Shown: positions 5,305 to 57,581 of the stretch, one piece after another
How positions within the stretch are numbered: position 1 is the stretch's first letter
Layout of the letters: each line of letters opens with the position of its first letter
Assembly: GCA_964551965.1 (NCBI GenBank)
Contig: CAZKFB010000001.1
Location: forward strand, 7,227 to 71,226
Origin: an uncultured Muribaculaceae bacterium
Lineage (GTDB): Bacteria; Bacillota_I; Bacilli_A; RF39; UBA660
DNA length: 64,000 bases
Reading direction: 5' to 3'
Translations under genes and position numbers: made by a program
Notes under the pieces: model-generated
Told to the model about the DNA's origin: nothing
What the model saw: only the letters and a program-made list of their open reading frames with translations
Databases searched by the model: none

Positions 5305-5323
5305 TTTCTACAAGGAGGGTATT

Positions 5324-6088
5324 ATGGATGTGATTGTGGTTTATCTGTTTATAGCAGGATTATTCTTTGGTTCATTTTTCAATTGTATTGCAAATAGACT
5401 AAGTAAAAATGAATCGATAATTCGACCAGGATCACATTGCGAAAATTGTAAACATGAATTAGCCTGGTATGAATTAATACCAGTTTTTTCATACATTTTT
5501 TTAAGAGGTAGATGTAAGAAATGTCATACTAAATTGAGTGTATGGTATCCATTAACAGAAATTATAACGGGATTATTGTTTGCTATTTCTTATATTCGAT
5601 TTGGTTTTACTATTGAAACTCTTATATCAATTACTATTGTTTCTATTTTAATTATTACATTTATAAGTGATATTAGTTATTATATTATACTAGATGAAGT
5701 AGTATTTATTGGGCTCTTGATAATGGTTGTATTGATGTATTTTAACTCAGGCGTTACGGGACTTATAAAGAGTATTATTGGTTGCTTATTTATTGGTGGT
5801 GTAATGACGTTCATTAAGTTAATAGGGGATAAAGCATTTAAAACAGAATCATTGGGATGGGGAGATATTAAACTAAGTTTAATAGCAGGATTTATTCTAG
5901 GTATTAGATTAGGTGCTGTATATATCTTTTTAGGTTCTCTTATAGCTTTACCGTTTGGAATTATTTTATCTTTTAAAAGTAAATCAAAGATTATACCTTT
6001 CGGACCTTTTTTATCGATAAGTTTAATTATTATATATTGGTTTAGCCCAGTATTTTATTCAATTTTAAATATTTTGTTAGGAGTATAA
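5324..6088 (+). CDS. Prepilin peptidase (A24 family, PilD/ComC-like)
   Basis: N-terminal zinc-binding CENC....C..C tetrad, a polytopic membrane profile and a GWGDIKL catalytic-Asp motif (GGGDVKL-like). RBS AGGAGGG upstream. Confidence 0.85.
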   Translation: MDVIVVYLFIAGLFFGSFFNCIANRLSKNESIIRPGSHCENCKHELAWYELIPVFSYIFLRGRCKKCHTKLSVWYPLTEIITGLLFAISYIRFGFTIETLISITIVSILIITFISDISYYIILDEVVFIGLLIMVVLMYFNSGVTGLIKSIIGCLFIGGVMTFIKLIGDKAFKTESLGWGDIKLSLIAGFILGIRLGAVYIFLGSLIALPFGIILSFKSKSKIIPFGPFLSISLIIIYWFSPVFYSILNILLGV

Positions 6089-16475: not shown

Positions 16476-16787
16476 GTGATTATTTTGGAAGTACTAGATC
16501 TAACCCCACTAAAAAGTGAATATAATTCACATTATCGAAATTATGATAAAAATATATTAGATTTTTATGAAATGAAGTTTCAAAATACATACACGATGGG
16601 AATCATCTTAAATTATATTATTGATACTAAAGAATATGAAGTGTATTGCTACATATACACAGATAAACAAACCGCATCTCATTTAAAAATGAAGTATTTC
16701 AAGAATAAAATATTATCCAAAATATATTTTAATTATTTAAAGTTATTTATGAATATAAGAGATTTGAGATTTTTTTTTAATAATTGA
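16476..16787 (+). CDS. Small hypothetical protein (GTG start), doubtful
   Basis: 103-aa ORF in an AT-rich spacer. GAGGTGA RBS before a GTG start. No recognisable domain. Confidence 0.2.
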   Translation: MIILEVLDLTPLKSEYNSHYRNYDKNILDFYEMKFQNTYTMGIILNYIIDTKEYEVYCYIYTDKQTASHLKMKYFKNKILSKIYFNYLKLFMNIRDLRFFFNN

Positions 16788-16854
16788 TTACAGTTTTATT
16801 ACAGTTTTGTAATAGAAATAAAAAAGATACTAAAGAGAAACTTTTCCGATATTT

Positions 16855-16884
16855 ACATTTACAAACCTTGATGTATAATGAAGT
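16855..16884 (+). promoter_or_regulatory. Candidate sigma-A type promoter upstream of the toxin-island operon
   Basis: TTTACA, 16-nt spacer, TATAAT preceded by TG. Lies ~110 nt upstream of the 16996 start. Confidence 0.35.
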
Positions 16885-16995
16885 AAAATGAATTAATTGT
16901 CTGTTGGATGATTAGTTCATTTTTTTATGCATTGGAGTGTGATTATTATGATTGTGCACAAATAATGATTAATTATACTAAAAAGGACTGATATT

Positions 16996-17340
16996 ATGAA
17001 ATTTATTAAAATAAAACCCACAACTAACTATAGTAATGAATCTATTATAAAACTATTTATTGAAGATAAATATTATCTTCATAAGACAACTATCACATTA
17101 ATACTTAACTATCCATTAGAAATAATCAATGGAATACCTGATGAATTAATAATACTAGTTCATAAAGGAGTAATTAATCAAGCATATATCAAGAGATTGG
17201 TATATAAAGAATCAACAGATAAAGAAGAAATAATAAAAGAATATTTGGAAATACCAAATATTTTTTTATTTAAAGGGGTTAATCATATTAAAACAAGCTG
17301 TAAAAATTTAGAAATAGAAATGGAGAATATATATGAATGA
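16996..17340 (+). CDS. Hypothetical protein (114 aa)
   Basis: ORF overlapping the start of the tail-collar gene by 8 nt, which suggests translational coupling. No recognised domain. Confidence 0.4.
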   Translation: MKFIKIKPTTNYSNESIIKLFIEDKYYLHKTTITLILNYPLEIINGIPDELIILVHKGVINQAYIKRLVYKESTDKEEIIKEYLEIPNIFLFKGVNHIKTSCKNLEIEMENIYE

Positions 17341-18001
17341 AAATATAAATAATTGTTTTACAGAAATTGAAGATGGAAAGATAAATGCTAAATTCAATAA
17401 AGCAACAATGAAATGCTTCGATTCAGAAAATAATAAATTTAGCATGGATTGTGATGGTAATTTAGTAGTTAATTCTATTATTACAAGAGAACAAAGTGGA
17501 AGTGGCCTAACATTTAATCAAGTGTATCCAGTAGGATCGATTTATATGAGTGTAAGTTCAATAGATCCTAGTACATTGTTTGGAGGAACTTGGGAACAAG
17601 TTAAAGGAAGATTTTTACTTGGCTGTGGAAATAATGGAGATGGAAATGATTACCTTGCTAATAATGTTGGTGGAGAAGCATCTCATCAATTAAGTATTAA
17701 TGAAGTACCAAGCCATGCTCACTATGTTAATTTGGTTACTGGAGCTAATGGAGCACATAATCATAATCTAAGAAGAGATATGGTAGGTAATGAATTTGGA
17801 ATCGGCGGAGGAAATTCTGTTGGAAACAGTTTAAACGGAACTTGGTCAAATACTAGTATATGGCCTAATTCTATTGGAGCATCTAGTGCTGGAATTCATA
17901 ATCATACTGTTTCCGGAAATACTAATGCTAATGGTGGAAGTCAATTCCATAACAATATGCCACCTTATCTTTGTGTATATATTTGGAAAAGAGTTTCTTA
18001 A
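17333..18001 (+). CDS. Phage tail collar domain protein (MdpB-like)
   Basis: Gly/Asn-rich repeats with HxH boxes (HAHYVNLVTGANGAHNHNL, HNHTVSGNTNANGG) and the terminal NMPPYL motif typical of phage tail-collar / microcystin-dependent protein family members. Confidence 0.7.
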   Translation: MNENINNCFTEIEDGKINAKFNKATMKCFDSENNKFSMDCDGNLVVNSIITREQSGSGLTFNQVYPVGSIYMSVSSIDPSTLFGGTWEQVKGRFLLGCGNNGDGNDYLANNVGGEASHQLSINEVPSHAHYVNLVTGANGAHNHNLRRDMVGNEFGIGGGNSVGNSLNGTWSNTSIWPNSIGASSAGIHNHTVSGNTNANGGSQFHNNMPPYLCVYIWKRVS

Positions 18002-18020
18002 AGTTCTATAGGAGTGTACA

Positions 18021-21000
18021 ATGAAAGAATTAATTAATTTAAGAAAACAAAGAGAAAAACACTTTCTAAATAAAGATGGAACAATAACTGCATGTATGTA
18101 TGATCATGATATCCATTATTTAGAAAATGGAGAATATAAAGAAATTGATAATACTCTAATAGAAGAGAATGATTATATTACAAATAAAAGCAATGATTTT
18201 AAAATAAGATTTAATAATGATAAATATTTAGTCAATATTAATCTAGGTAATAGCTATTTAAATATAAGTTTAAAAAATGCTAATGAAACAAAATCAAAGA
18301 TAATTAATAATGAAGTAATCTATGAAAATGTTCTACCTAATATAGATTTTCATTATTTAATTAATGGTTCAACATTAAAAGAAAATATCTATTTAAATAA
18401 TGAAATAAAAAATAGTATAATTTTTAATATTGATACTAATTTAAAATTAGAAATAAGAGATAATAAGGTACTTGCATTAGATAAAGATAAGGTTATATAT
18501 ACATTTAATCCATTATTTATGATTGATGCAAATGAAGTAATTAATCGCAATTGTAAATATAAATTAGAAAAAAATAATGATTTTTATGAATTAGAGATTA
18601 TTCTTGATCAAGACTATTTAATGAATGCCAATTATCCAGTAATTATTGATCCAACAATTACAAGTGATAATTTAGAAAATGTATTTGATGTAACTATTAA
18701 TTCAAATGCTGCAGATAGTAATTTTGATTTTTCAAAACATTTATATATTGGAAATGATGGAACAGGAATAAAGCGTGCATTATTAAAATTTGATTTACCT
18801 TTTATTTCTACAGGTTGCAACATTATAAAAGCAACAGTATATTTAAAAAATTCAGTTGCATTTATCCATGAAAATTCTGAGAGAATTGCCGTCCACGAAA
18901 TTACAGAAAGTTGGGATGAATCAACTGCGACATGGAATAACATGAGTAGTAAATTCGATACTAAAATGGAAACTTATCTTGAAACACCTCAAATGTTATA
19001 CCTAGATACAGCATTTGATTTTGAAATAACCAATATTGTAAAAAAATGGTATACCAATAATGTTAATAACGGAATCATGCTAAAATTGTTTGATGAAAGC
19101 CCTAATACAAGTCATGCAGACTATAGCTTTTACTCTAAAACATATGATGGAGTAAATGGAACGGCAGATCGACCATATCTAGTTATTGAATATAGAATGC
19201 AAAATGGTCTATTAGATTATATGACATATGAAAGTATACCCCTTTCGTATGGCGCATCATACATTAATAATAATAATGGTAATTTGATAACTCAAATATC
19301 TTTATCGGAAATATTAGATCAAACAAGTTTATATGGTTTACAAATAACATATAATACAGATAGTATGTTATTAAACCAAAATAATGGTTTCGGATTAGGA
19401 TTCAATATCAGTTATAATGACTATGTAATAAAGACTCCTAATCAATTTATGGAAACGGAATATTTATATAAACTATCTGATGGAACTAGTCATTATTTCT
19501 ATCAATTTAGTAAAGGAATATTTTGTGATGAAGATGGCATAAATCTAACGTTAGAAATTGTTAATGAGGAAAATAATAATTATAAAATTACTGATAAAGA
19601 GGGAAATAAATTTATTTTTACCAATAGTTATTTATCAAAAATAGAATATGTCGATGAAACATTTGTTAATATTGTTAGAAATAGTTCTAATTATATTACA
19701 AGTATTAAAGATAGTAAGAATAATGAAGTTACTATTAACTATAATACAAATCAAGTTTTATTAACATGTAATAATAAAACAATTACTGTTAATTTAACAA
19801 ATAATAAGATAAATAATATTTCATTTAAAAAGGGAAATATTAATTTTAATTATAATGACAGTTCACTTATATCAAAAATTATTGATATTAATGGTTTAGG
19901 TGCAGGATTTGATTATTATGAGGTATCTCCTTATCGTGTAAAGAAATTAACTGAATATGGATTAAATAATGCTACCGGTAAATTCAAAACTTTTACATAT
20001 GAATTTAATTCGACAACAGTAACTGATCATAAGAATAATAAAATTAGATATACTTTCAATAATATGGGCAATACAATAAGCACTGTTATTTTAGGAAGTG
20101 ATGATTCATTAAAGAATTCTTATGGATTTTCAGAAAAATATATAGACGAAGTAAAGTCGGCTGCTACTAATAAAGTATTATCAAGTTCATTACCTATTAA
20201 GTTTACAAAAAATTTAATTAAGAATGGAAACTTTGAGACTACAGATAATAATTTCTTATTCCAGTATAAATCTAATGAAGATAGTTATAATGGCAATTAT
20301 TCAGCAAAAATTAACGCATATGGTAATGGACAAATAGCAAATGTTTTTGAGAGTACAAAAAATTATACTTTTGGTGCGTTTTATAAAAATGAACATCCAG
20401 TCTATATTGAAATATATTCTAAATTAAACACTGATGTAGAAACATTAAAAGAATACATTATTATGCCTAATGATGAATTTACTTATCAAGAAAAAACATT
20501 TGAGACACCTAGTCAGTTTGATTGTATTGGTTTTAACTTCACTGTTTTGTATGATGGAATTGCTTATATGGATGATGTTGTAATAAGCGAAGGAGAGTCA
20601 GCAGGATTATATAATTTAATCGATAACCCAGACTTTGAAGATAATACTGATGGTTGGCTAATTAGTGGAAGTGTTGACGGATCTGAAGAAGAAATAAGTA
20701 ATCCATATCAAATAATTACTTTGTCATCAAATGAAAAAGCTATTCAGTTAAATAGTATTGTCAATGGTGGAGTATCAATGGTTAAAACTTTACCTATTTC
20801 CGGAAAAATTGGAGATGCTTATACCTTTTCTTTTTGGTATAAGAATGAAGGAGTGTTTAATGTTGATTCGGGATTAGTTGGAAATATGGCAGCAATCATA
20901 TTTAACGATCCTGATGATGATTTAGGAAGTGGAACGCAAAATGCATTATTAAATTATCATGCTGATAATTGGCAATATTATACAGATACTTGTGTAGCAG

Positions 21001-23981
21001 AGAATAATTATGATTCAATCACAATTGTAATATTAAGTATGTATGAAGCAAATCATATTTCTTTAACTAATTTTTCACTTATTAAAGATTTAGGTTCTTA
21101 TTCATTTAAATATGATGATAATGGAAATTTAATATCATTGAGTGATGTATTAAGCAATAAAAGTGAATTTAAATATGATAGTAATAATCAATTAATTAGT
21201 TCATTTAATGCTAAGGGTAAAAACTTTAAATATGAATATGATAATACTAAAGCAGATAGGCTTCTTAAAGGAATTAGTCCTACCGGAATATCTAATGAAA
21301 TTAAGTATGATGAATTTGGAAATCCTAAAGCCACAATTATTAACAATGTTAATCCAAAAGGGAATGATATAGATGGCAACTTCTATATTCGCTCTAAGGG
21401 TACTGATAAATATTTAACTCCTGATTTACAAACGGGAATAATAAGTTTAAAAAATGATACATGTAGTCATTATTCATACTCAATTGAAAGCCATAATGAG
21501 ATTAATGATCAAACAGAAACAAAAGTATATAATTTAAAATCAACTATATTACCAGATAAAGTTTTAGTAAAAATTGATAATACTATAAAACTAGTTAAAA
21601 CTGGGCCTTGTACAAACTTTGAATTTATTAATAGAGATAATGGATCAAAATTAATAAAGGTATATAATGAAGATTTATACTTAAAGGTAGATAATGAAGG
21701 ATTAGTATTTGCAGCTCTTGAAGAAAATTCAAACTATGAATTTTACTTTGAAGATACTGACACTAATGAATTTATTATGAATACTTCTGAATATACAGAA
21801 GATGGAAAATATATTACTAAAATGATTGATACTTTAGGAAATACAACTACTTATGATATTGATCATAATACAAATCTTGTAAATTCAATAACTAATGCTA
21901 AAGGGATTGAAACAACATATACATATGATAATAAAGATCGATTAACAAATGTAACTGTTGATAATAAACAAGTAGAATATGTTTATGAAAATGATTTAAT
22001 AAAAAATATTAAAACTGGTAATAAGAATTATCAATTTGAATATGATAATTTCCTAAATCCAACTAAGGTAAAAATCAACAATCAGACATTAGTAACTAAT
22101 GAATATGAAAGTAATAATGGAAAATTAAAAAGTGTTACTTATGGCAATAATGAAATTATTAATTATGAATATGATAAATTTGAAAGATTAGCTAAAAGTA
22201 ATAATTATGAATATCAATATAATAATTCAGGATTATTAAAATCAGTTAAAGATAATACTTCTTATATAGAAGATTACAATTATGACTTTGCTAATCGATT
22301 AAAAACATATATGCTTAATAATAAATTTAAAATAAATTATAACTATGATGTCAATAGTAATATCAATCATAAAGATTATTATTATGGAAATTATAAAAAT
22401 ACATTAGATTATATATTTAATGATGATGATTCAGTTATAAAAGTAAACTTTGATAACAATACAGTTAATTATACTTATGATTATTTAGGAAGATTGATAA
22501 CAAGGAATATTAATGATAATCTACCAGTAGAATATACATATAAGAAAAATGGAGATAGAACATCATTAATAATAGATACTATAAAAATAGGTAATGATAT
22601 TTATAAGTATTCATATGATAATCTATATAATATAACATCTATTAAAAAGAATAATGAGATAATCAATGAATATCTATATGATAATAGAAGTGAATTATTA
22701 GCAGATATCAATTATGAATTAAATAGAAAGTATGTTTATGCATATGATAACGAAGGAAACATCATAACTAAAAAAGAATATAACTTAGAAACTAACGAAT
22801 TAATTGATGAAGATACATTTACTTATGGAAATACTTCATGGGAAGATCAGTTAACTAAATTTAATAATGATGTAATAACTTATGATGAAATAGGAAATCC
22901 AATAACTATTGGAAGTAAAGAATTAACATGGAGTAAAGGAAGACAGTTAACAAAATATAAAGATGGAAATACAGAAATAAATTATAAGTATAATAAAGAT
23001 GGAATAAGAATATCAAAAGAGATAGGGAATAATAAAACAAATTATTATTTAGAAGGAAGAAAAATAATATTTGAAGATAAAAATAATAATGTGATATACT
23101 ATATATATGATGATAGTGGTTACTTGTTAGGATTCAAATATAACAATGAAATATACTATTATCAAAAGAACTATCAAAATGATATAACAGGAATCTACGA
23201 TAGTAATTATAACTTAGTAGTAAGCTATAAATATGATGGATGGGGAAATATAATAAAAGTAGAAGATAATACAAGTAATAATATAGGAAGTATAAATCCA
23301 TTCAGATATAGAAGTTACTATTATGATGAAGAGACAAGTTTATATTATTTAAATAGTAGATACTATAATCCAAATTGGTGTAGATTTATTAATATAGACG
23401 AGTATATAAAAATTTCTTCACTAGGAGGAAATTTATATTCATATACAGAAAATAATCCTATTACAAATATAGATGAAACAGGCAACATCTTTAAAAAGGT
23501 AGCTAAATTCTTTGTTGACAGCTATACTAAAACAAAAAAAATAGTGAAGAATAGTAGCAAAAAGATTTCTGATAAATTTAAGAAATTTAAAAAACAGTTG
23601 AAAGAAGGATATGAATATCTTAAAAAATCATTTGTGCTTGAAACGGGAAGAGGAAACGGTTTTTCACTAGAAGATAATACATCTTTTGCAAAAATTGGAA
23701 TAAACGATTCAACAAATATTGTATCAAAGTATAAACAAGGGAAAAAAGAAGAATACTTAGAGCAAACAAGAGGGATTTCATTAGGAGTTGTTGGCATCTC
23801 ACAAAACCTTGTGGATTTAGAAACAGAAGGTTTAAACCATTATCCAACAACTTATTCAATTGGGATAATTGAATTTTCTGATACAGATGGAACAATTTTT
23901 ATTGGGCATACAACTAGCTTACATTTTTATGTTGGTGGATATGTAAAAATAGGATTTGAAATAAAAATGACAGGAAATTGA
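18021..23981 (+). CDS. RHS/YD-repeat polymorphic toxin (1986 aa), no signal peptide, variable C-terminal toxin domain
   Basis: Many YD-type repeats (YxYDxxGN..., YEYD, YKYD). RHS repeat-associated core end is ...YKYDGWGNII...NPFRYRSYYYDEETSLYYLNSRYYNPNWCRFINIDEY, followed by the junction motif LYSYTENNPITNIDETGN and then a ~170-aa lysine-rich C-terminal domain. The N-terminal ~400 aa resemble the beta-sandwich (DNRLRE-like) module seen in Firmicutes RHS proteins (..RIAVHEITESWDESTATWNNM..). The hydrophilic N-terminus has no Sec signal. Confidence 0.9.
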   Translation: MKELINLRKQREKHFLNKDGTITACMYDHDIHYLENGEYKEIDNTLIEENDYITNKSNDFKIRFNNDKYLVNINLGNSYLNISLKNANETKSKIINNEVIYENVLPNIDFHYLINGSTLKENIYLNNEIKNSIIFNIDTNLKLEIRDNKVLALDKDKVIYTFNPLFMIDANEVINRNCKYKLEKNNDFYELEIILDQDYLMNANYPVIIDPTITSDNLENVFDVTINSNAADSNFDFSKHLYIGNDGTGIKRALLKFDLPFISTGCNIIKATVYLKNSVAFIHENSERIAVHEITESWDESTATWNNMSSKFDTKMETYLETPQMLYLDTAFDFEITNIVKKWYTNNVNNGIMLKLFDESPNTSHADYSFYSKTYDGVNGTADRPYLVIEYRMQNGLLDYMTYESIPLSYGASYINNNNGNLITQISLSEILDQTSLYGLQITYNTDSMLLNQNNGFGLGFNISYNDYVIKTPNQFMETEYLYKLSDGTSHYFYQFSKGIFCDEDGINLTLEIVNEENNNYKITDKEGNKFIFTNSYLSKIEYVDETFVNIVRNSSNYITSIKDSKNNEVTINYNTNQVLLTCNNKTITVNLTNNKINNISFKKGNINFNYNDSSLISKIIDINGLGAGFDYYEVSPYRVKKLTEYGLNNATGKFKTFTYEFNSTTVTDHKNNKIRYTFNNMGNTISTVILGSDDSLKNSYGFSEKYIDEVKSAATNKVLSSSLPIKFTKNLIKNGNFETTDNNFLFQYKSNEDSYNGNYSAKINAYGNGQIANVFESTKNYTFGAFYKNEHPVYIEIYSKLNTDVETLKEYIIMPNDEFTYQEKTFETPSQFDCIGFNFTVLYDGIAYMDDVVISEGESAGLYNLIDNPDFEDNTDGWLISGSVDGSEEEISNPYQIITLSSNEKAIQLNSIVNGGVSMVKTLPISGKIGDAYTFSFWYKNEGVFNVDSGLVGNMAAIIFNDPDDDLGSGTQNALLNYHADNWQYYTDTCVAENNYDSITIVILSMYEANHISLTNFSLIKDLGSYSFKYDDNGNLISLSDVLSNKSEFKYDSNNQLISSFNAKGKNFKYEYDNTKADRLLKGISPTGISNEIKYDEFGNPKATIINNVNPKGNDIDGNFYIRSKGTDKYLTPDLQTGIISLKNDTCSHYSYSIESHNEINDQTETKVYNLKSTILPDKVLVKIDNTIKLVKTGPCTNFEFINRDNGSKLIKVYNEDLYLKVDNEGLVFAALEENSNYEFYFEDTDTNEFIMNTSEYTEDGKYITKMIDTLGNTTTYDIDHNTNLVNSITNAKGIETTYTYDNKDRLTNVTVDNKQVEYVYENDLIKNIKTGNKNYQFEYDNFLNPTKVKINNQTLVTNEYESNNGKLKSVTYGNNEIINYEYDKFERLAKSNNYEYQYNNSGLLKSVKDNTSYIEDYNYDFANRLKTYMLNNKFKINYNYDVNSNINHKDYYYGNYKNTLDYIFNDDDSVIKVNFDNNTVNYTYDYLGRLITRNINDNLPVEYTYKKNGDRTSLIIDTIKIGNDIYKYSYDNLYNITSIKKNNEIINEYLYDNRSELLADINYELNRKYVYAYDNEGNIITKKEYNLETNELIDEDTFTYGNTSWEDQLTKFNNDVITYDEIGNPITIGSKELTWSKGRQLTKYKDGNTEINYKYNKDGIRISKEIGNNKTNYYLEGRKIIFEDKNNNVIYYIYDDSGYLLGFKYNNEIYYYQKNYQNDITGIYDSNYNLVVSYKYDGWGNIIKVEDNTSNNIGSINPFRYRSYYYDEETSLYYLNSRYYNPNWCRFINIDEYIKISSLGGNLYSYTENNPITNIDETGNIFKKVAKFFVDSYTKTKKIVKNSSKKISDKFKKFKKQLKEGYEYLKKSFVLETGRGNGFSLEDNTSFAKIGINDSTNIVSKYKQGKKEEYLEQTRGISLGVVGISQNLVDLETEGLNHYPTTYSIGIIEFSDTDGTIFIGHTTSLHFYVGGYVKIGFEIKMTGN
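23079..23400 (+). repeat. Repeat copy A: 3' end of the RHS core, in the full-length gene
   Basis: aataataatgtgatatactatatatatgatgatagtggttacttgttagg...tggtgtagatttattaat recurs near-identically at 25754 (from its start) and at 24302 (from its middle). Confidence 0.85.
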
Positions 23982-23997
23982 AAAAAGGTGAAGAATT

Positions 23998-24294
23998 ATG
24001 GCAAAAAAGCAGTGTAGAATAGGAAGTATAATTTTTGCAAAAGAATACTTAACGGAGCAAAACGATTTTTTTAATAGAAAAATATACTATAATGAGATTA
24101 AAAGCTATTATATAAAGGCAACCATACATTCTAAATATATGACAAAAGATTTATGCATTATAACTGAAAAAAACAAAAAAAAGAAAATGTCCTATACAGT
24201 TGGACAATGTGGGATTTTTTTCTTTGATCCAGAAGAAAATATAATTAATATGATGAAAATGGTTTGCCCCCATGCTGAATATATAAAAAAATAA
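23998..24294 (+). CDS. Putative cognate immunity protein for the RHS C-terminal toxin
   Basis: Small ORF 17 nt downstream of the toxin stop, with GGTGAAG RBS. Position is typical for rhsI-type immunity genes. No homology asserted. Confidence 0.45.
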   Translation: MAKKQCRIGSIIFAKEYLTEQNDFFNRKIYYNEIKSYYIKATIHSKYMTKDLCIITEKNKKKKMSYTVGQCGIFFFDPEENIINMMKMVCPHAEYIKK

Positions 24295-24301
24295 GTATTA
24301 T

Positions 24302-24481
24302 CAGTAGTAAGCTATAAATATGATGGATGGGGAAATATATTAGAAGTAGAAGATAATACAACAAATAATATAGGAAGTATAAATCCATTCAGATATCGAA
24401 GTTACTATTATGACGAAGAGACTAGTTTATATTATTTAAATAGTAGATATTATAATCCAAAATGGTGTAGATTTATTAATG
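24302..24481 (+). repeat. Repeat copy B: RHS core-end homology in orphan cassette 1
   Basis: ~180 bp at >90% identity to 23214..23395 of the main gene. Homology ends exactly where the toxin domains diverge. Confidence 0.85.
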
Positions 24482-25104
24482 CTGATGGAATAGTAGGAGC
24501 AAACCAAGACATAACGAGTTTAAACTTGTATGCATATGTAAGTAATAATCCAATTAGTAATACGGATGATGATGGCAATTCATTATTTAAAGTGATAAGA
24601 AAAGCAGTTAAAATTGCCGCAAACATATCATTTAAAGGAGTTAAGGATAAAGTTGTTAACACAGCCAAAAGATATATTAAAAATAAGATAGATGGATATT
24701 ATCAAATTGGAAAAGCATATGTGGACTCTAAAATAAACGAAATGAATTTTAGAGCAAATGCATTTTATGCTGAAGTTGGTGTAAGTGACCCCACAGTAAG
24801 CAAAGCTATAAGTAAAAGTAATAATACGTTGGGGATATATACTAATAAAACATACAAAATTCACCAAAAACAGATTTCTCGTTCAGCGGATACTGTATTA
24901 AGTATAAGTCCAATTTCCATTTCAAAATCTATAGACGATGAATCGACTGTTAGTAAAAACATATCATATTCGTTTAAATATGTAGAATTGTCATCTGAGG
25001 GATTTTTCTTTGGATATTCTTTCAGTGAGCATCACGGCACCGTTGGAATAGATGCAAAATTAGGTTTATATGTCAAATGGGATTGGTTTATAAAAGGCAT
25101 TTAA
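24302..25104 (+). CDS. Orphan RHS C-terminal cassette: displaced core-end fragment fused in frame to an alternative toxin domain, with no upstream start codon
   Basis: Frame opens right after the immunity gene stop and encodes VVSYKYDGWGNILEVEDNTTNNIGSINPFRYRSYYYDEETSLYYLNSRYYNPKWCRFINADG...LNLYAYVSNNPISNTDDDGN. This duplicates residues ~1730-1815 of the main gene and is followed by a different ~175-aa C-terminal domain. The ORF track reports only the TTG-initiated 24526..25104 part. Confidence 0.65.
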
Positions 25105-25132
25105 AATGATATAGGAAGATAGGTAATGGTGT

Positions 25133-25660
25133 ATGAAAGATATAGTTAAATATAATATAATATTTTTTAATCTTTTTCCAATTATAATAGAATCAATAAT
25201 CATAATTGTGGGAAGTATAGTTTTTCAATCACCGATTTTTTTACTATCTTTTATATTTATATTTATTGAGTGTAAAAACCTAAGAAAAAATTTAGACAAT
25301 TTAAGAAAAGTTCAAAATAAATTTGATTGTGTTGGAGAAGTACTTTATCAAAACAGTGGGTGTTTTCTATATGACAGTTGTATTATAAACATTAAATTTA
25401 ATATTTTTACTGTAGATTATTCTGATATAGATGAAATATATTTTGAAAAAGAATATTATGGAAATGTAAGAGAGCCAAATATATGTATAATAACTAAGGA
25501 TAGAAAAAAATATAAAATTAAATTTCCAAGATTAACAGTACCACAACCAAATGATGAAGAACTTAATCTTATAATTGGCATTATAAAAAAGAATAATCCT
25601 AAGGTGAAATTGACTGGTAACACTATAAAAAAATATATCGAACCAGATTTATTTAATTAG
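25133..25660 (+). CDS. Putative immunity protein for orphan toxin 1 (membrane protein)
   Basis: Follows the orphan toxin by 28 nt. N-terminal hydrophobic region of two TMs (IIFFNLFPIIIESIIIIVGSIVFQSPIFLLSFIFIFI). Confidence 0.4.
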   Translation: MKDIVKYNIIFFNLFPIIIESIIIIVGSIVFQSPIFLLSFIFIFIECKNLRKNLDNLRKVQNKFDCVGEVLYQNSGCFLYDSCIINIKFNIFTVDYSDIDEIYFEKEYYGNVREPNICIITKDRKKYKIKFPRLTVPQPNDEELNLIIGIIKKNNPKVKLTGNTIKKYIEPDLFN

Positions 25661-25753
25661 TTTAAATTGTATAGTTTAATTATAGTTGAAAAGAATATAT
25701 GCAAAGAATATTTGTGGTAAAATAGTGAGTAATTTTTATTATTTTAAATCGAA

Positions 25754-26000
25754 AATAATAATGTGATATACTATATATATGATGATAGTGGTTACTTGTT
25801 AGGATTCAAATATAACAATGAAATGTACTATTATCAAAAGAACTATCAAAATGATATAACAGGAATCTATGATAGTAATTACAACTTAGTAGTAAGCTAT
25901 AAATATGATGGATGGGGAAATATATTATCAGTAGAAAATAATACAATAAATAGTATATGAAGTATAAATCAATATAGATATCTAGTTTACTACTACGATG
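25754..26000 (+). pseudogene. Orphan cassette 2: degenerate RHS core-end fragment with premature stops and the toxin domain lost
   Basis: Starts with the same aataataatgtgatatactatatatatgatg... as main-gene position 23079. Translates as ...YIYDDSGYLLGFKYNNEMYYYQKNYQNDITGIYDSNYNLVVSYKYDGWGNILSVENNTINSI*, then decays (stop codons within SINQYRYLVYYYDGDNIFVIYT*). Confidence 0.65.
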
Positions 26001-26094
26001 GAGATAATATCTTCGTTATTTATACTTAGCATATCATTTAATCATTCTATACAAAATAAATATATATTGATATCTAAATCCTCGGAGGAAGTTT

Positions 26095-26730
26095 ATGAAA
26101 AAAACAAAGATTACAATTACAAAAGAAAACATACCCATAATATCAGCAAAAGCAAATCTTTTGATAACAAAACTTTTTAAAATTAATTTTTTTGTTTGTC
26201 TATTAGCGGGATATTTCTTTGTGAATGATTTAGTTACAAATACTGTAAAAGAAAGCTCCAACAAATACAATGTGCAAACGGATAGTTATTTGATAGTTTC
26301 TGCAATTTTATTTGTTTTATTAGTAATTTTGATGAGATATTTACATTTATATTTTTCATATAAAAAAATGCATAACAAAAAATACAATGATGAAAATAAT
26401 TATACAATATCATATAAGAATGAGTATTTAATCGGGGAAAATATAAATACAAAAATCAAAGTAAATTATGATAAGATATTTTTTATTGGAAAAGTTGACT
26501 TGTTATATTTTATGGCCTATTTAGATGACAATGAATATTTTATATTGCCGATAGGAAATGTTGGAATAGATGGTTTTACAATTAATGAATTATTAGTTAA
26601 TTGTCACAATTTAAAATTTAAAAAAATAGTATCTTATAATTCGAAAAAAAAGTTGTGCATATTACTTTTTGTAATATTATTTCTGATGTTTTTAGTTAAT
26701 TTTACTAGATTCCTATATTGTATAATTTAA
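26095..26730 (+). CDS. Membrane protein, possible orphan immunity gene
   Basis: 211 aa with several TMs. GGAGGAAG RBS. Located directly after the degenerate orphan cassette. Confidence 0.35.
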   Translation: MKKTKITITKENIPIISAKANLLITKLFKINFFVCLLAGYFFVNDLVTNTVKESSNKYNVQTDSYLIVSAILFVLLVILMRYLHLYFSYKKMHNKKYNDENNYTISYKNEYLIGENINTKIKVNYDKIFFIGKVDLLYFMAYLDDNEYFILPIGNVGIDGFTINELLVNCHNLKFKKIVSYNSKKKLCILLFVILFLMFLVNFTRFLYCII

Positions 26731-26788
26731 ACAAATGCTTTTTCAAGTTGCAATATTGTCATCTGACGGATTATTATTTGGATAATCG

Positions 26789-26887
26789 TTCAGCTTGCAT
26801 TATGGTGGACCTGGAGGCAATATAAAGTTGGATATTAAATTTTTAGATGGACTAGATTTTTTTAAATTTAAATTCATAACCGTGTGA
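26789..26887 (+). pseudogene. Remnant of a toxin-domain 3' end (third displaced cassette tail)
   Basis: Short frame SFSLHYGGPGGNIKLDIKFLDGLDFFKFKFITV* resembles the C-terminal end of orphan toxin 1 (YSFSEHHGTVGIDAKLGLYVKWDWFIKGI*). It has no start and no upstream domain. Confidence 0.35.
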
Positions 26888-26946
26888 GTAGTAAAATCTA
26901 AAAGATATATATGAAAATGATCGAATATGAGTTATAATTGAAATGA

Positions 26947-27741
26947 TTGAAGTTGGTGATACTAGTGGATAATAAATTTACATATCTTATTGGTTGTATC
27001 TTCTTATTTGGTGTCTTTATCTATTTGATTTTTTGTGTTATAAAAGAGTTAAAATTGTATAAAAGTTTTGATTTATCAAAAAAAATAGATTTGAAAAAGT
27101 ACAATAAGATACAGGATGTCAAAACAAGAACAATTGCATATATTATTTTATCAATTTGTATAGGCTTGCTATGTGTATTGGCGCTCTTTAATTTACCTAA
27201 AATTATAACTGGATTTTATGATGATAATTTTATTATTCAAGAATGTGAGATAACAGACTATCTATATAATGGAGTAGATAATCCTGACATGCTTAGTTGC
27301 AAGAATGATAATTTGGAAATAAATGAAATAGAGTTCTATAGCAGAGCTGAATCCATAGATGAAGATAGTATCGGGAATCATATTTGTATTAAAATAAAGC
27401 CTAATAGAGGAAACGCTGAGATTATAAAAATGAGTAATGAACATAATCTTTCTTGTGATGAGTTTTATTGGCAAAATAAAAATGAAAAGAATGAAGTTAA
27501 TTATAATTACTCAATAGTTAAATGTGAAATTAGTAAATATGAAAAAAATAGAATTAACTGCCGTATTAATAATAAGATATATTTAAAAGAAATAGATTTA
27601 TTAAATAAAGAGACAATACAAAAGCATAATAAAATATGCTTAAAGTATTATTGGAATACTAATTCGGGAGAAATTCTATATTCAGATGATTCTAATAAGA
27701 AGTTTAGTTGTGATGATTATATAAAACAAGAAGAAAAATAA
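26947..27741 (+). CDS. Hypothetical protein with N-terminal TM, Cys-rich, possible orphan immunity or accessory gene
   Basis: 264-aa ORF with an N-terminal TM and a second TM near residue 60. No recognised domain. Confidence 0.35.
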   Translation: MKLVILVDNKFTYLIGCIFLFGVFIYLIFCVIKELKLYKSFDLSKKIDLKKYNKIQDVKTRTIAYIILSICIGLLCVLALFNLPKIITGFYDDNFIIQECEITDYLYNGVDNPDMLSCKNDNLEINEIEFYSRAESIDEDSIGNHICIKIKPNRGNAEIIKMSNEHNLSCDEFYWQNKNEKNEVNYNYSIVKCEISKYEKNRINCRINNKIYLKEIDLLNKETIQKHNKICLKYYWNTNSGEILYSDDSNKKFSCDDYIKQEEK

Positions 27742-27768
27742 GATTATAAAGATTAATAGGAGTATTAA

Positions 27769-28347
27769 ATGGAAAAGATAGTAATAAGAGTATTAGGAGT
27801 TTTGTTTATGCTAGTTGCTTTAAAATTAATTAGAGATGTGGCCAGTTCTGATAATTATAATAAAACTCAATCTATAAAAGAAAAAATCCTTAAAACAAAA
27901 AATATTAAAGGGTATACTTGTTCCAATCGAGATGGGTATAAACTAATATTCTTTGGTTTAACAATTGTTTTTCTTATTATGACTGTTATAAGTCTGATTG
28001 TATTTATATATGAAATAATAAAAAAATATGATGTCAGCGAGACAAATAATATTCTTGGTATAACAAGTGTTATGCTTTGCTTATTCCTTGCCAGTCTTTT
28101 ATTATTTATTTATACTTCAAAGTGCAATCTCTATTTTAATGATGAAGAAATAATTAGATATAGGATATTAAGGAAAAAACAAGTCATGAAATATAAAGAT
28201 ATTGTGAGAACAATGGTAACCCCATTTTCTAGAATAATATTATATTCAACAGATGACAAATTGATATTTGGACTAGATACATCACAAAGCAATAAATTTA
28301 TTGATTTATTGAAAAAAAAGGGAATAGACATTAGTTATAAAATGTAA
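27769..28347 (+). CDS. Membrane protein (4 predicted TMs), unknown function
   Basis: GGAG RBS. Hydrophobic segments at about residues 5-20, 60-80, 95-115 and 150-165. Confidence 0.4.
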   Translation: MEKIVIRVLGVLFMLVALKLIRDVASSDNYNKTQSIKEKILKTKNIKGYTCSNRDGYKLIFFGLTIVFLIMTVISLIVFIYEIIKKYDVSETNNILGITSVMLCLFLASLLLFIYTSKCNLYFNDEEIIRYRILRKKQVMKYKDIVRTMVTPFSRIILYSTDDKLIFGLDTSQSNKFIDLLKKKGIDISYKM

Positions 28348-28418
28348 AAACTTTTTATTGTATTTTAAAAAACTATTATTCAGAAAAAAATTTATTTGAG
28401 CGGTATTTAGCAACAATT

Positions 28419-28443
28419 AAGAGCAATTTTATTGCTCTTTTTT
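28419..28443 (+). terminator. Intrinsic terminator immediately upstream of the hydrolase/holin genes
   Basis: AAGAGCAAT-ttt-ATTGCTCTT hairpin followed by a T-run. Confidence 0.6.
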
Positions 28444-28462
28444 AATGAAAGGAAGTGAGTTA

Positions 28463-29086
28463 ATGGCATATATATTAAGAAAAATAATTAATAGTCCATT
28501 AAAGGATATAACTAGTTCTAAGATTAATTCTGATTTTGGACCACGAACTTTTTATAATAAGATAACTAAAAGATATGAAACAGGACACCATAATGGTATT
28601 GATATTACAGGAAGCAATGTTGTCGTTTCTGCTTTTGATGGTATTGTTACTAGTACAAGAAATAATGTTGATGGTTATACGGAAAAGTATAAGAGTGGTA
28701 ATTACGTAACTATAAATCACGGTAATAATCTATATTCAACCTATTGCCATCTAAAAAAGAATTCTATTTGTGTAAAAAAAGGACAATATGTAGTAGCTGG
28801 TACTAAACTAGGTATAATGGGCAAGACTGGTCATGCAACCGGAATACACTTACATTTTGGTATTAAAAAGGATGGCAAATTTGTTGATCCTAAACCATAT
28901 CTTTTAAACAATGTTGCAAATATTAAAAATAATATTGAAGTTATCTATATTGTAAAAAAGGGAGATAATTTATCAAAGATAGCTAAGAAATATCATACTA
29001 CTTGGAAGAGAATATATGAAAAGAATAAGGAATTAATAGGAGACAATCCTAATTTAATATATCCGGGATGGGAATTAAAGATTTAA
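28463..29086 (+). CDS. M23 family peptidoglycan endopeptidase with C-terminal LysM domain
   Basis: M23 metal-binding motifs HHNGIDI ... GNYVTINHGNNLYSTYCHL ... GKTGHATGIHLHFG. The C-terminal LysM is YIVKKGDNLSKIAKKYHTTWKRIYEKNKELIGDNPNLIYPGWELKI. Start taken at 28463 (GGAAGTGAG RBS) rather than the track's 28445. No signal peptide. Confidence 0.8.
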   Translation: MAYILRKIINSPLKDITSSKINSDFGPRTFYNKITKRYETGHHNGIDITGSNVVVSAFDGIVTSTRNNVDGYTEKYKSGNYVTINHGNNLYSTYCHLKKNSICVKKGQYVVAGTKLGIMGKTGHATGIHLHFGIKKDGKFVDPKPYLLNNVANIKNNIEVIYIVKKGDNLSKIAKKYHTTWKRIYEKNKELIGDNPNLIYPGWELKI

Positions 29087-29457
29087 TTAATATTAATGTG
29101 ATAAGTAGTACGTTTATTTTTTTAATAGGTGGCTTTGATAATTTATTTATAACTTTATTAATATTCATTGCTCTTGATTATATAACAGGTGTAATTAAAG
29201 CAATTTATCAAAAAAAGTTAAATAGCAAATTAGGATTAAAAGGATTTTTAAAAAAATTAGGTTATATATTAATAGTAATAATAGGAAGTTTATTTGATTC
29301 ACTTATAGGAGATAAAACAATGGCAATAAGAACATTATGTATATATTTCTTTATTTCTAATGAAGCCATTTCAATACTTGAAAATTGGGCGTTTATGGGT
29401 CTTCCACTTCCCAAGAAAATATTTCAAGTATTTGAATCTTTAAAAGAAGATAAATAA
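29068..29457 (+). CDS. Holin of the TcdE/UtxA family (toxin-secretion / phage-lysis holin)
   Basis: Three-TM small protein. LDYITGVIKAIYQKKLNSKLGLKGFLKKLGYILIVIIG and the C-terminal ILENWAFMGLPLPKKIF align by eye with my recollection of the C. difficile TcdE sequence. The start overlaps the hydrolase gene end by 19 nt. Confidence 0.75.
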   Translation: MGIKDLININVISSTFIFLIGGFDNLFITLLIFIALDYITGVIKAIYQKKLNSKLGLKGFLKKLGYILIVIIGSLFDSLIGDKTMAIRTLCIYFFISNEAISILENWAFMGLPLPKKIFQVFESLKEDK

Positions 29458-29462
29458 AATTA

Positions 29463-29491
29463 TTGACTATATAAGGGAAAAAGGGTAATAT
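29463..29491 (+). promoter_or_regulatory. Candidate sigma-A promoter for the regulator gene
   Basis: TTGACT, 17-nt spacer, TAATAT. Sits ~30 nt before the AAGAGGTGA RBS of the 29521 gene. Confidence 0.45.
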
Positions 29492-29520
29492 ATACAATCA
29501 AGTGATTAAGAGGTGATTAT

Positions 29521-30036
29521 ATGATTAATACAATCTCGATTAAAGACTTTGTTGAATTACCAGATATTATGTTAGACAAAGCAAGAAAAGTTAAATATAT
29601 TCAACTATTAAGTGAAAATACAGTTAATGAATATTATTATTCTAATCTAAGAAAAGATATAGAAAAAGTTTTTAATAAATTTAAAGATTCTAAATATTTA
29701 ATATGCTATGATAATAACTATAGTTTAAAATCTAATGCCAGTTCACTAGAATTAAATAGGAACACTAATAAAATCAATGATAAGGTTGGAACATATATAG
29801 AAAGTAAAATGGATTTAAGTATATGGTCTAAGGATTTATATAATATTTTATATGCCTTATCAGAAGAATTAACAATAGAAGAATCTATGTATTTAACACT
29901 TACATTCTTTGAGGAAAAGACTGAAGAAGATATAAGTGAAATATTGGATGTTTCTAAAAAAGGCCTATATAAAATAAAAAAGAGTTGTTTAGTAAAACTA
30001 AGATTAGAGTTTTCTAAATATGATTTGATGAATTAG
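29521..30036 (+). CDS. Putative transcription factor with sigma-70 region-4-like C-terminal HTH (TcdR/UviA-type small sigma or ArpU-family phage late regulator)
   Basis: C-terminal LTFFEEKTEEDISEILDVSKKGLYKIKKSCLVKLR matches the region 4.2 pattern (F....T..EI.EIL..S...V.K.R..AL.KL) shared by TcdR-like sigma factors and ArpU regulators. It is 171 aa, the size of both families. Confidence 0.5.
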   Translation: MINTISIKDFVELPDIMLDKARKVKYIQLLSENTVNEYYYSNLRKDIEKVFNKFKDSKYLICYDNNYSLKSNASSLELNRNTNKINDKVGTYIESKMDLSIWSKDLYNILYALSEELTIEESMYLTLTFFEEKTEEDISEILDVSKKGLYKIKKSCLVKLRLEFSKYDLMN

Positions 30037-30067
30037 AGAAGTGTGAGAAATCACACTTCTTTTTTTA
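30037..30067 (+). terminator. Strong intrinsic terminator at the right edge of the toxin island
   Basis: 10-bp perfect stem AGAAGTGTGA / TCACACTTCT with a GAAA loop and a 7-T run. Confidence 0.85.
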
Positions 30068-54389: not shown

Positions 54390-54390
54390 T

Positions 54391-57576: not shown

Positions 57577-57581
57577 TATAG

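Follow-up and report, generated by a model that had tools for sequence, protein, structure and literature searches.

Organization of the locus

The window analysed here is a stretch of 64,000 nucleotides (64 kb) of contig CAZKFB010000001.1 in the metagenome-derived assembly GCA_964551965.1, and the subject of this work is a block of about 13 kb within it, built around a 1986-aa RHS polymorphic toxin. The block is a self-contained module of an uncultured low-GC lineage of gut Bacilli, in which the toxin and its immunity genes are accompanied by phage receptor-binding-like proteins, a holin, a peptidoglycan hydrolase and a small regulator. We consider it moderately probable that this module is a domesticated phage late operon, which makes a receptor-targeted RHS bacteriocin and sets it free by lysis. 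From 16.8 to 30.1 kb every gene is on the plus strand, in the following order:

16996-17340, plus strand: orf114, no family match
17333-18001, plus strand: tail-fibre or receptor-binding-protein-like gene (222 aa), Gp10_C head domain with HxH motifs
18021-23981, plus strand: RHS polymorphic toxin (1986 aa), Pfam matches above the cut-off
23998-24294, plus strand: putative cognate immunity gene (98 aa), inferred from its position directly 3' of the toxin, no family match
Between the 98-aa gene and the hydrolase gene, extending to 28347, plus strand: variable stretch
28463-29086 (alternative start 28445), plus strand: hydrolase with an M23 (LytM-type) endopeptidase domain (Peptidase_M23, 81 bits) and a LysM domain (48.8 bits)
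29068-29457, plus strand: holin (TcdE-containing family), which shares 19 nt with the hydrolase gene
29521-30036, plus strand: 171-aa regulator with two helical domains, the C-terminal one a sigma region-4-like helix-turn-helix (HTH)
30035-30062, plus strand: module-closing intrinsic terminator, 12-bp stem followed by a T-run, graded strong

An earlier reading of this DNA (referred to below as the original prediction) had placed a strong terminator at the end of the block, which the hairpin listed above bears out; terminators also trail the regulator gene in five of the related loci described below (L002, L005, L012, L015 and L017). The GC content is about 25% throughout the window, with no compositional break at the module, and the genes on both sides are of the housekeeping type (rpoA, type IV pilus genes and an OatA-like acyltransferase upstream; CMD, amylase, ABC ATPase and UvrB downstream). 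In agreement with the same prediction, no capsid, terminase, portal or integrase families were found among the scanned window proteins, part of the small open reading frames (ORFs) of the 64 kb being outside the scan, and the precomputed annotations of the syntenic flanks contain none of these families either. Elements that go beyond the original prediction are the repeats, promoter and leader hairpin in front of the module, the orphan rhs modules in the variable stretch, and the receptor-binding-protein character of the gene at 17333-18001.

The RHS toxin

The RHS protein was assigned by matches to RHS_repeat (70.9 bits), YD_repeat_2x (59.8 bits) and Rhs_assc_core (61.4 bits), and its landmarks are as follows:

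aa 223-390, nt 18687-19190, plus strand: CBM96/DNRLRE glycan-binding module (DNRLRE_dom above the cut-off)
From about aa 1031, nt 21111, plus strand: start of the YD shell
aa 1738-1821, nt 23232-23483, plus strand: Rhs_assc_core, above the cut-off
From about aa 1830, nt 23508, plus strand: start of the C-terminal toxin

The C-terminal toxins vary among the orthologues and include Tox-WTIP, Tox-REase-7 and Ntox44. The original prediction had described the RHS protein as devoid of an export signal, and this description holds: the N-terminus is hydrophilic (the maximal Kyte-Doolittle value over 15 residues is 0.08 in the first 80 aa), neither a signal peptide nor a transmembrane segment is present there, in this protein or in 13 orthologues, and family scans reported no match to Sec-signal, PAAR, LXG/WXG or two-partner secretion (TPS) trafficking-domain families, and no LysM domain or wall-binding repeat.

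The N-terminal part of the protein is of phage origin. A tblastn search of the INPHARED collection with the RHS N-terminus identified a group of tail proteins typified by gp18 of Bacillus phage PBC1, with which residues 1-391 share 27% identity (E-value 3e-20), the alignment starting from the first residue. The gp18 gene lies directly 3' of the tape measure gene. In the Bacillus cereus siphophages of the PBC1 group no Dit has been found, and a role in adsorption has been proposed for the "YD repeat protein" (PMC9128512). The AlphaFold 2 (AF2) model of residues 1-420 (pLDDT 87) comprises an all-beta N-domain followed by a CBM96-like module; the CBM part matches the structure 8wab (E-value 6e-7), while the whole model matches a 1379-aa siphovirus protein (E-value 8.5e-27, TMq 0.71). 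Residues 1-391 are thus a phage tail-tip-like region, and the best-conserved stretch of the RHS protein across the loci is its extreme N-terminus (MKELINLRKxREKHFLNxDGTIT...). The likeness to PBC1 gp18 and to the "YD repeat" proteins of Carmen17 and Wes44 covers the N-terminal ~390 aa, homologous from the first residues and with the CBM96-like module included; the 1063-aa gp18, however, lacks both a toxin and a Pfam-detectable RHS shell, and its gene belongs to a complete virion module, where it is flanked by the tape measure gene and tail genes. A separate homologue search with residues 1-420 yielded 30 mostly shortened proteins, which served the alignment and not the analysis of distribution.

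A 2178-aa RHS protein with an N-terminal region 25% identical to that of the window protein is encoded in L049 (MT835902.1, 422-6958, minus strand), a 15.7-kb scaffold from human faeces annotated as "UNVERIFIED Bacteriophage sp."; its viral nature is doubtful and we do not regard it as informative.

The receptor-binding-like protein and orf114

The 222-aa product of 17333-18001 scores 84.7 bits against Pfam Gp10_C (cut-off 27) and also matches tail and tail-fibre families of PHROG. The original prediction had called it a tail-collar protein, of which the phage tail type was retained, while the Pfam Collar identity was rejected (no match; the domain is Gp10_C). The head domain is up to 42% identical to the C-terminus of the "antireceptor" of Lactobacillus delbrueckii phages. 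More than 4000 homologues of Gp10_C were counted. When copies from the module are aligned, hardly any variation is seen in the first ~50 aa, even among the two or three paralogues of one locus, and the insert of the head domain between the HNH and HNNMPPYL motifs is hypervariable, also among paralogues of one locus. Judged from this alignment, the anatomy of the family is that of interchangeable receptor-binding proteins with a common docking site.

The gene overlaps the upstream orf114 by 8 nt (ATGAATGA), in keeping with the coupling to an upstream ORF noticed originally. The orf114 product can be aligned with part of the 382-aa fused Gp10_C protein of L017 (residues 57-138, E-value 2e-5) and has orthologues with 59-62% identity in L015 and L027. 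The homologous segment in L017 and L039 is the N-terminal extension that their longer, fused Gp10_C proteins carry, so that the window encodes a split form of such a protein. By this comparison orf114 is the split-off N-terminal domain, translationally coupled to the Gp10_C gene.

The homology of the RHS N-terminus, from its first residue, to a PBC1-type tail protein encoded next to a tape measure gene, and the conserved docking N-terminus of Gp10_C, would also suit a different explanation, in which RHS and Gp10_C are accessory tail-tip or adsorption parts of a particle encoded elsewhere in the same genome, be it a phage, a tailocin or something else, and the lysis cassette and the regulator serve the release of that particle. 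The finding that regulator homologues together with the promoter-hairpin element head clusters resembling integrative and conjugative elements (ICEs), and that one Gp10_C-RHS pair lies inside an ICE (both described below), points in the same direction. However, no tube, sheath, tape measure, baseplate, capsid or terminase genes were found among the scanned window proteins or in the flanks of any locus examined (context look-ups span at most 10 kb on each side), the module is found at many sites among housekeeping genes, and the sole regulator match in IMG/VR again adjoins an RHS gene, without virion genes. We regard a particle encoded elsewhere as improbable.

Immunity genes and orphan toxin modules

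The variable stretch downstream of the 98-aa gene contains the following elements:

24303-25660, plus strand: orphan module 1, consisting of an rhs core-end remnant with an alternative C-terminal toxin (to 25104) and a putative immunity gene (25133-25660)
25737-26065, plus strand: orphan module 2, a decayed rhs core-end remnant with 90% identity to 23065-23332
26095-26730, 26947-27741 and 27769-28347, plus strand: three membrane-protein genes, no family match above the cut-off

The segment 24303-24480 is 95% identical to 23216-23393 of the main gene, and the translation of orphan module 1 holds the ...NLYAYVSNNPISNTDDDGN junction. Copies of the 3' end of the RHS core (23065-23393) thus lie at 24303-24480 and at 25737-26065, and the variable stretch holds two orphan toxin remnants with candidate immunity genes; such repeated core ends are the classic signature of C-terminal displacement in rhs loci. 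A toxin-end remnant of the repeat family D4 is also present at 26741-26805. The membrane-protein genes at 26095-28347 are probably orphan immunity genes: the pair among them that codes for 264 aa and 192 aa lies directly 3' of the RHS gene in L001, and is found again in L002 and L003. In L046 the immunity candidate is an ankyrin-repeat protein. The immunity genes and orphan modules point to bacteria as the targets of the toxin.

The holin and the peptidoglycan hydrolase

The membership of the holin in the TcdE-containing family, put forward in the original prediction together with the hidden Markov model (HMM) searches that could confirm it, is now well supported, with 125.4 bits against Phage_holin_4_1 (PF05105; cut-off 22.2) and 94.9 bits against TIGR01593 "toxin secretion/phage lysis holin" (cut-off 40.2); the protein contains hydrophobic segments. 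The overlapping M23/LysM hydrolase retains intact HxxxD and HxH motifs and, as originally stated, has no signal peptide, its N-terminus being hydrophilic. Comparison with orthologues indicates that its translation probably starts at 28463. Both proteins are encoded outside a prophage, next to a signal-less RHS cargo and with no virion genes in the flanks. One further element separates them from the upstream genes:

28419-28439, plus strand: intrinsic terminator-like hairpin, directly 5' of the ribosome-binding site of the hydrolase gene

An equivalent hairpin with a T-run precedes the M23 gene in L002, L003, L005, L012, L014 and L043, and is not found in L015, L017, L021, L023 and L026.

These features bear on how the toxin would leave the cell. 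In the lysis-released bacteriocin proposed above, the holin would permeabilise the membrane, the signal-less M23 enzyme would then cut the wall, and a committed subpopulation would lyse. Alternatively, the M23 enzyme and the RHS protein could cross the membrane via the holin in a non-lytic secretion of the type 10 kind, or in surface display, with survival of the producer; M23/LysM would open the wall locally, and the glycan-binding modules would keep the RHS protein on the producer surface, where it would act by contact like WapA. The holin belongs to the family that contains TcdE, for which non-lytic export has been proposed (for example PMC9527704 and PMC10516005), the N-terminal layout of the RHS protein (a domain of unknown type followed by DNRLRE) resembles the wall-binding region of Streptococcus suis WapA (PMC12704120), and the terminator 5' of the M23 gene would hold the dosage of the lysis genes low. 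On the other hand, without lysis a folded RHS cocoon of ~230 kDa could hardly get across a holin lesion and then a thick wall. The type 10 secretion systems (T10SS) studied in most detail proved lytic (PMC10847048), and in the loci where other cassettes replace holin and M23, the endolysins (GH25/CW_7, CHAP/SH3) are of common phage kinds that typically go with full lysis. We regard the non-lytic route as unlikely, albeit the most plausible of the alternatives considered here.

The regulator

With 20-21 bits, the 171-aa protein does not reach the gathering cut-offs of Sigma70_r4 (24.1 bits) and Sigma70_r4_2 (25.7 bits). It scores 26.8 bits against the generic sigma-70 model TIGR02937 (cut-off 42.9), and it does not itself match the ArpU model TIGR01637. 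Its AF2 model (pLDDT 82) consists of a three-helix N-domain of only ~60 aa, a disordered linker and a four-helix C-domain, which superposes on sigma-4 of SigF (TMt 0.83, rmsd 1.2 Å). A Foldseek comparison of the model with the PDB reported no significant match (best E-value 0.48), with the list dominated by sigma factors, and a search of PDB sequences with the regulator profile returned only SigF region 4 (E-value 0.024).

The family is rare, with 27 homologues in a collection of 5.8 billion proteins and 165 cluster representatives among 1.84 billion. Among its remote members, 26 of 41 match TIGR01637 (phage_arpU), all below the cut-off (best E-value 4e-8), and these ArpU-matching relatives are joined to the regulator family of the window by hhalign with a probability of 99.8%. 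Taken together, these comparisons suggest that the regulator is a divergent relative of the Ltr superfamily; from the profile comparison and the modelled two-domain fold, we describe it as a distant relative of the ArpU/Ltr late activators. Of the original assignment to a sigma region-4-like or ArpU-like regulator, the sigma-4-like C-terminus and the kinship with ArpU were retained at the level of profiles and structure, while the Pfam Sigma70_r4 cut-offs were not reached and there was no direct ArpU match. The possibility that the protein is a TcdR-like (group-5) sigma factor was also considered and rejected, as it has only sub-threshold matches to generic sigma models and the relatives of the family match ArpU. 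In Gram-positive phages, members of the Ltr superfamily (RinA, ArpU, LtrA-C) switch on the late operon for packaging, morphogenesis and lysis by binding to direct repeats upstream of its promoter (PMC3753634).

The scans of sequence collections were pattern-based, so that distant relatives can escape them. In IMG/VR, the scan with the regulator profile found a single locus, with regulator and RHS but without virion genes, and the scan with the M23 protein, which has the same limit, found no match.

Several loci contain additional genes of this kind. In L027 (9278-10429), which is contiguous with L021 on CAJUPN010000007.1, a second regulator paralogue (42% identity) with its own promoter-hairpin lies ~5 kb upstream of a complete module that closes with the usual regulator. 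In the remote locus L046 (10001-13474) the regulator gene is followed by genes for a small protein that passes Sigma70_r4_2 (34 bits) and for a 655-aa Gp10_C protein, all upstream of the RHS gene.

Promoters, repeats and the leader hairpin

A scan for sigma-70 promoters in DNA of 25% GC returned 159 sites against 159 expected; since it is uninformative alone, promoters were called only where conserved across loci. The cis-elements of the module are:

16787-16808, plus strand: two tandem 11-nt direct repeats (ATTACAGTTTT), found by a repeat scan, upstream of P1
16852-16879, plus strand: module promoter P1 (TTTACA, 16 nt, TATAAT), with TG 5' of the -10 element
16884-16926, plus strand: leader with a -10-like TAAAAT, a 17-18-bp hairpin and a U-run (terminator-like), beginning 5 nt after the -10 element
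16948-16965, plus strand: tiny ORF with a Shine-Dalgarno sequence (MIVHK followed by a stop codon), directly 3' of the leader hairpin
29463-29491, plus strand: regulator promoter P2 (TTGACT, 17 nt, TAATAT)

Across 18 aligned loci, neither the TATAAT of P1 nor its distance from the elements downstream varies. A second repeat pair (ATTTACA, two copies) covers the -35 region of P1, and arrays with a spacing of ~11 nt occur at the same position in other loci, with five copies of TTTAGTTTAC in L034 and six copies of TTTTGCAA in L038. The repeat sequences differ between lineages, as expected for sites that co-evolve with their activator. By analogy with the Ltr activators, we propose the direct repeats as candidate binding sites of the regulator and read P1 as a putative Ltr-dependent "late" promoter of the module.

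The leader hairpin is stable (-31.9 kcal/mol, z = -5.1) and its consensus stem exhibits compensatory changes in 3 of 11 pairs. It has no Rfam family match, the sole Rfam match in the whole window being an unrelated OLE RNA. The repeat-promoter-hairpin element was found in 19 distinct loci, every time together with this regulator family; it precedes the first module gene in the RHS-type loci, and the regulator gene in the L008-type and ICE-like loci. The hairpin could be either an attenuator that silences a lethal operon or a target of antitermination; no hairpin is described at Ltr promoters in the accessible part of PMC3753634. A Shine-Dalgarno sequence and an ORF of 3-6 codons follow the hairpin in most RHS-type loci, among them L014, L015, L026, L027 and L032 (MKRRK, MKKRR, MKT and MSC, each ending in a stop codon), and the tiny ORF could be a leader peptide or a vestige of a lost first gene.

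P2 is kept in the gap between holin and regulator in 11 of the 13 RHS-type loci examined, and lies between the leader hairpin and the regulator gene in the ICE-type loci. A switch that works by antitermination and read-through into the regulator gene was also considered, and is weakened because the regulator has this conserved promoter of its own.

In L034 (9733-20507), and with the same layout in L038, L040, L044 and L045, the same element and a regulator with 27-32% identity head ICE-like clusters, which encode a thioester-domain (TED)/SpaA adhesin, a sortase, DUF3846/resolvase and a VirB4/TraG-like ATPase. This suggests that the regulator family is a common switch of two kinds of mobile or ex-mobile modules.

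Conservation of the module

About 14 distinct loci contain the combination of Gp10_C (1-3 copies), an RHS protein of ~2000 aa, variable immunity and orphan genes, M23/LysM, holin_4_1 and the regulator. All close homologues of the regulator (at least 40% identity) with readable context are found in this arrangement; the synteny comparison suggested in the original prediction thus found holin, M23/LysM and regulator travelling with RHS in every close relative identified. The ~14 loci occupy six or more unrelated chromosomal sites, among them:

CMD/amylase/UvrB: the window and L001-L004
PolyA_pol/DnaB_2/Lon: L005
SocA/acetyltransferase: L012
Directly after rpoB-rpoC: L014
HTH genes and a serine recombinase: L015
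MMPL/DUF218: L017

Since the gene set recurs at many unrelated chromosomal sites, its co-occurrence is far beyond chance. The lineages that carry it share just 35-65% protein identity. All carriers are metagenome-assembled genomes (MAGs), labelled "Bacilli bacterium" or "Tenericutes", with one Candidatus Ventrenecus and a few "Muribaculaceae", the latter probably mis-binned, and come from the gut of deer, rabbit, mouse, human, chicken and sheep.

Between the window and its orthologues dS is saturated (0.9-2.4), and at this saturation the dN/dS ratios are 0.09-0.17 for M23, 0.13-0.28 for the holin and 0.22-0.28 for the regulator, the range for these three genes and Gp10_C together being 0.09-0.28. 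The low values indicate that these genes are maintained and are not prophage debris. In remote versions of the module, the combination persists where its members have been exchanged. L053 and L054 contain a Sigma70_r4-like regulator, three copies of Gp10_C, an RHS protein with Ntox44, two small genes, Phage_holin_6_1 and a GH25/CW_7/LysM muramidase, and L008-L011 contain the regulator, holin_6_1 and a CHAP/SH3 endolysin, followed by Gp10_C. Swapped lysis families and altered gene order, with persistence of the combination, is the pattern expected of a functional dependency.

These data decide about the alternative that the original prediction had itself named, namely a decaying prophage remnant in which the lysis genes, the regulator and the tail-fibre gene are functionally unconnected to rhs. 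The ancestry it invoked is right: the accessory parts are all of phage late-gene types, and the RHS N-terminus, Gp10_C, the lysis genes and the regulator each have phage-type relatives. A recombinase was found nearby in L015, L008 and L056 only, among the loci examined, and the neighbours in L015 and L008 include cI/antirepressor-like genes as well. The decay, however, was not borne out: all ORFs are intact and under purifying selection, the module recurs at ~14 loci, and non-orthologous lysis cassettes occur in the same module, with head or packaging genes in none of the loci. Nor was the trio of holin, M23 and regulator found inside a complete prophage, either in close relatives or in the pattern-based IMG/VR scans. 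Because of the recurrence, the selection and the displacement of cassettes, we consider the remnant reading effectively excluded.

A proposed mechanism

We propose the following scheme for the lysis-released bacteriocin. The ArpU/Ltr-type regulator, made from its own promoter P2, would bind the direct repeats upstream of P1 and switch on one long transcript behind the leader hairpin. Encoded on this transcript would be orf114 and Gp10_C, the RHS protein, which cages its C-terminal toxin, and the immunity proteins; read-through of the internal terminator would add M23/LysM and holin. The RHS protein (~230 kDa) would fold in the cytoplasm, and its tail-tip-like N-terminus would probably associate with trimeric Gp10_C via the two invariant N-termini. 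Holin- and M23-dependent lysis of the committed subpopulation would free the toxin complex, which could then bind surface glycans or receptors of competitors and intoxicate them, with the immunity proteins protecting kin cells.

Several observations weigh against this scheme. The evidence is computational throughout, and the sequences behind it stem from metagenome assemblies of uncultured organisms. The association of Gp10_C with RHS, although probable, is predicted from sequence, and the link between the regulator and ArpU is transitive and consists of matches below the curated cut-offs. In about half of the loci a terminator parts the RHS and immunity genes from the lysis genes, so that their co-expression is not guaranteed. 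The passage of the caged toxin across the envelope of a Gram-positive target and the role of the conserved leader hairpin are both left unexplained by the mechanism. Furthermore, in the DNA examined, L051 and L052 have no lysis genes within 3.8 kb downstream, L047 and L050 carry only the regulator and RHS, and in L056 (1-20618) a Gp10_C-RHS pair (RHS 2062 aa) is the cargo of an ICE. The cassette is therefore not obligatory for every member of the Gp10_C-RHS family.

As to L056 itself, the ICE genes comprise TrbL, PrgI, a VirB4-like ATPase, DUF3846 and a serine recombinase, and no holin/hydrolase pair was seen in the flanks examined.

Relationship to known systems

The individual parts of the module are already known: RHS polymorphic toxins, TcdE-family holins, release of the T10SS type and Ltr regulators. 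So is the principle of a lysis cassette that frees an RHS-caged toxin, and the statement in the original prediction that such a pairing would be undescribed was too strong. In Tc toxins the TcB-TcC cocoon is an RHS shell, and these toxins are set free by holin/endolysin/spanin T10SS cassettes, some of them embedded in Tc operons; Yersinia entomophaga frees its Tc toxin (YenTc, with an RHS cocoon) by T10SS-dependent lysis of a specialised subpopulation (PMC10847048). The module resembles YenTc and its cassette YenLC in combining a large signal-less RHS-cocoon toxin folded in the cytoplasm, a holin and hydrolase of phage origin outside a prophage, and a dedicated regulator. Release by lysis of a subpopulation would be a further likeness, which for the module of the window is suggested by its genes. 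In contrast to the Tc systems, the host is monoderm, no families of the TcA translocator or of a separate TcB were found in the module or flanks, and the toxin is a single-chain polymorphic RHS protein with immunity genes and orphan modules. No spanin genes were found either; spanins are not expected in a monoderm. Further contrasts with the Tc systems are the phage receptor-binding-like parts for targeting, the M23 endopeptidase as hydrolase and the ArpU/Ltr-like regulator.

The original prediction had likened the block to the pathogenicity locus (PaLoc) of Clostridioides difficile (tcdR, tcdE, tcdL, tcdA/B), and both loci indeed combine a giant toxin that has no signal with a holin from one family, a hydrolase gene of phage descent and a small regulator, which in the window is a predicted activator. 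However, the regulator is placed with ArpU/Ltr and is not a TcdR-type group-5 sigma factor, and the analogy is thereby limited to the holin and the general logic. TcdL is a remnant, whereas the hydrolase of the window is intact; in place of a large clostridial glucosyltransferase there is an RHS cage whose C-terminus is polymorphic and which comes with immunity genes; and the locus includes receptor-binding-like genes.

With WapA and other Gram-positive RHS toxins (Bacillus subtilis, S. suis) the module shares the YD shell, the Rhs-associated core, the variable toxin with immunity, orphan modules and DNRLRE/CBM96. WapA proteins have a Sec signal and wall-anchoring LysM domains or wall-binding repeats (PMC12704120), whereas the RHS protein of the window and its orthologues have neither Sec signal nor wall anchor, and are linked instead to lysis and receptor-binding-like genes.

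Among tailocins and bacteriocins that depend on lysis for release (R/F pyocins, diffocin, colicins) there are phage-derived or lysis-dependent weapons set free by altruistic lysis, as is proposed for the module; interchangeable receptor-binding proteins determine their specificity, and a phage-type lysis cassette and regulator are present. Colicin lysis proteins and the lysis cassettes of tailocins follow the same release logic. Unlike tailocins, the module has no sheath, tube, tape measure or baseplate, and killing would be due to an RHS-caged enzyme and not to membrane puncture.

The Ltr superfamily (RinA, ArpU, LtrA-C), as portrayed in the accessible part of PMC3753634, shares with the regulator the small two-domain architecture and the sigma-4-like C-terminus; in the window, direct repeats lie upstream of the putative target promoter, and the operon that the regulator is predicted to control ends in lysis genes. 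The protein of the window differs in that it stays below the TIGR01637 and Pfam cut-offs and belongs to a rare family, and its gene lies 3' of the operon and not 5' of terS. P1 is at once followed by a terminator-like hairpin, a feature absent from that portrayal.

In the literature searched we found no description of a compact Gram-positive RHS-lysis module, of a single-chain, immunity-linked RHS protein coupled to phage receptor-binding-like proteins and bearing a tail-tip-like N-terminus, or of an ArpU-like switch with a promoter-proximal hairpin. We tentatively suggest that the module stands for a distinct class of bacteriocin, tail-less yet phage-derived, lysis-released and receptor-targeted, in which interchangeable trimeric receptor-binding proteins would dock onto the tail-tip-like N-terminus of a single-chain RHS cage, an ArpU-like switch with a promoter-proximal terminator would control production, and the complex, freed by programmed altruistic lysis, would carry the caged toxin to competitors; this is a substantial possibility, though one that we would not call probable.

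Other features of the window

A T2SSF platform protein (of type IV pili or type II secretion systems, T2SS) and a prepilin peptidase (A24) are encoded at 3736-6088 (plus strand), just 3' of the rpoA region, and an N-methyl pilin gene adjoins the regulator in L039; the carrier lineage appears to make type IV pili or competence pseudopili. The ORF at 16476-16787 (plus strand; 103 aa, GTG start) has no family match, overlaps the repeat region 5' of P1, and is probably not a gene.

The segment 44845-45345 (plus strand) contains a full-length OLE (ornate large extremophilic) RNA (RF01071, 224.7 bits, E-value 5e-62), here in a gut-associated, low-GC genome of uncultured Bacilli. The ORFs on either side (43703-44821 and 45415-45945, the second of which weakly matches CNNM) may be OLE partner genes. 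A four-gene cluster at 52741-58013 (plus strand; 239, 310, 1061 and 143 aa) has a GC content of 0.33-0.34 compared with ~0.25; its first three genes have no Pfam match, the 143-aa gene belongs to DUF5411 (181 bits), and the cluster is possibly a foreign island.

Implications

Two questions are open: by what route large signal-less toxins exit from Gram-positive cells, and by what means the RHS toxins of Gram-positive bacteria get to their targets. The 13 kb described here unite cargo, receptor-binding-like proteins, immunity, holin and hydrolase, and a dedicated switch, and are one possible answer to both; the combination is kept while the lysis genes are swapped, and the hypothesis is directly testable by heterologous expression. 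The tie of the repeat-promoter-hairpin element to a rare ArpU-like family that also heads ICE-like clusters is a regulatory puzzle in its own right.

If the proposal is correct, a tail tip and a late operon would have been turned into a toxin launcher, a new route of phage domestication, and toxin release resembling T10SS would extend from Gram-negative insect and enteric pathogens to interbacterial warfare among uncultured gut Firmicutes. The swappable receptor-binding and toxin ends could serve engineered targeted antibacterials. Such a class of bacteriocins would give signal-less Gram-positive RHS toxins a means of export and targeting that is independent of Sec and of the type VI and type VII secretion systems (T6SS, T7SS).

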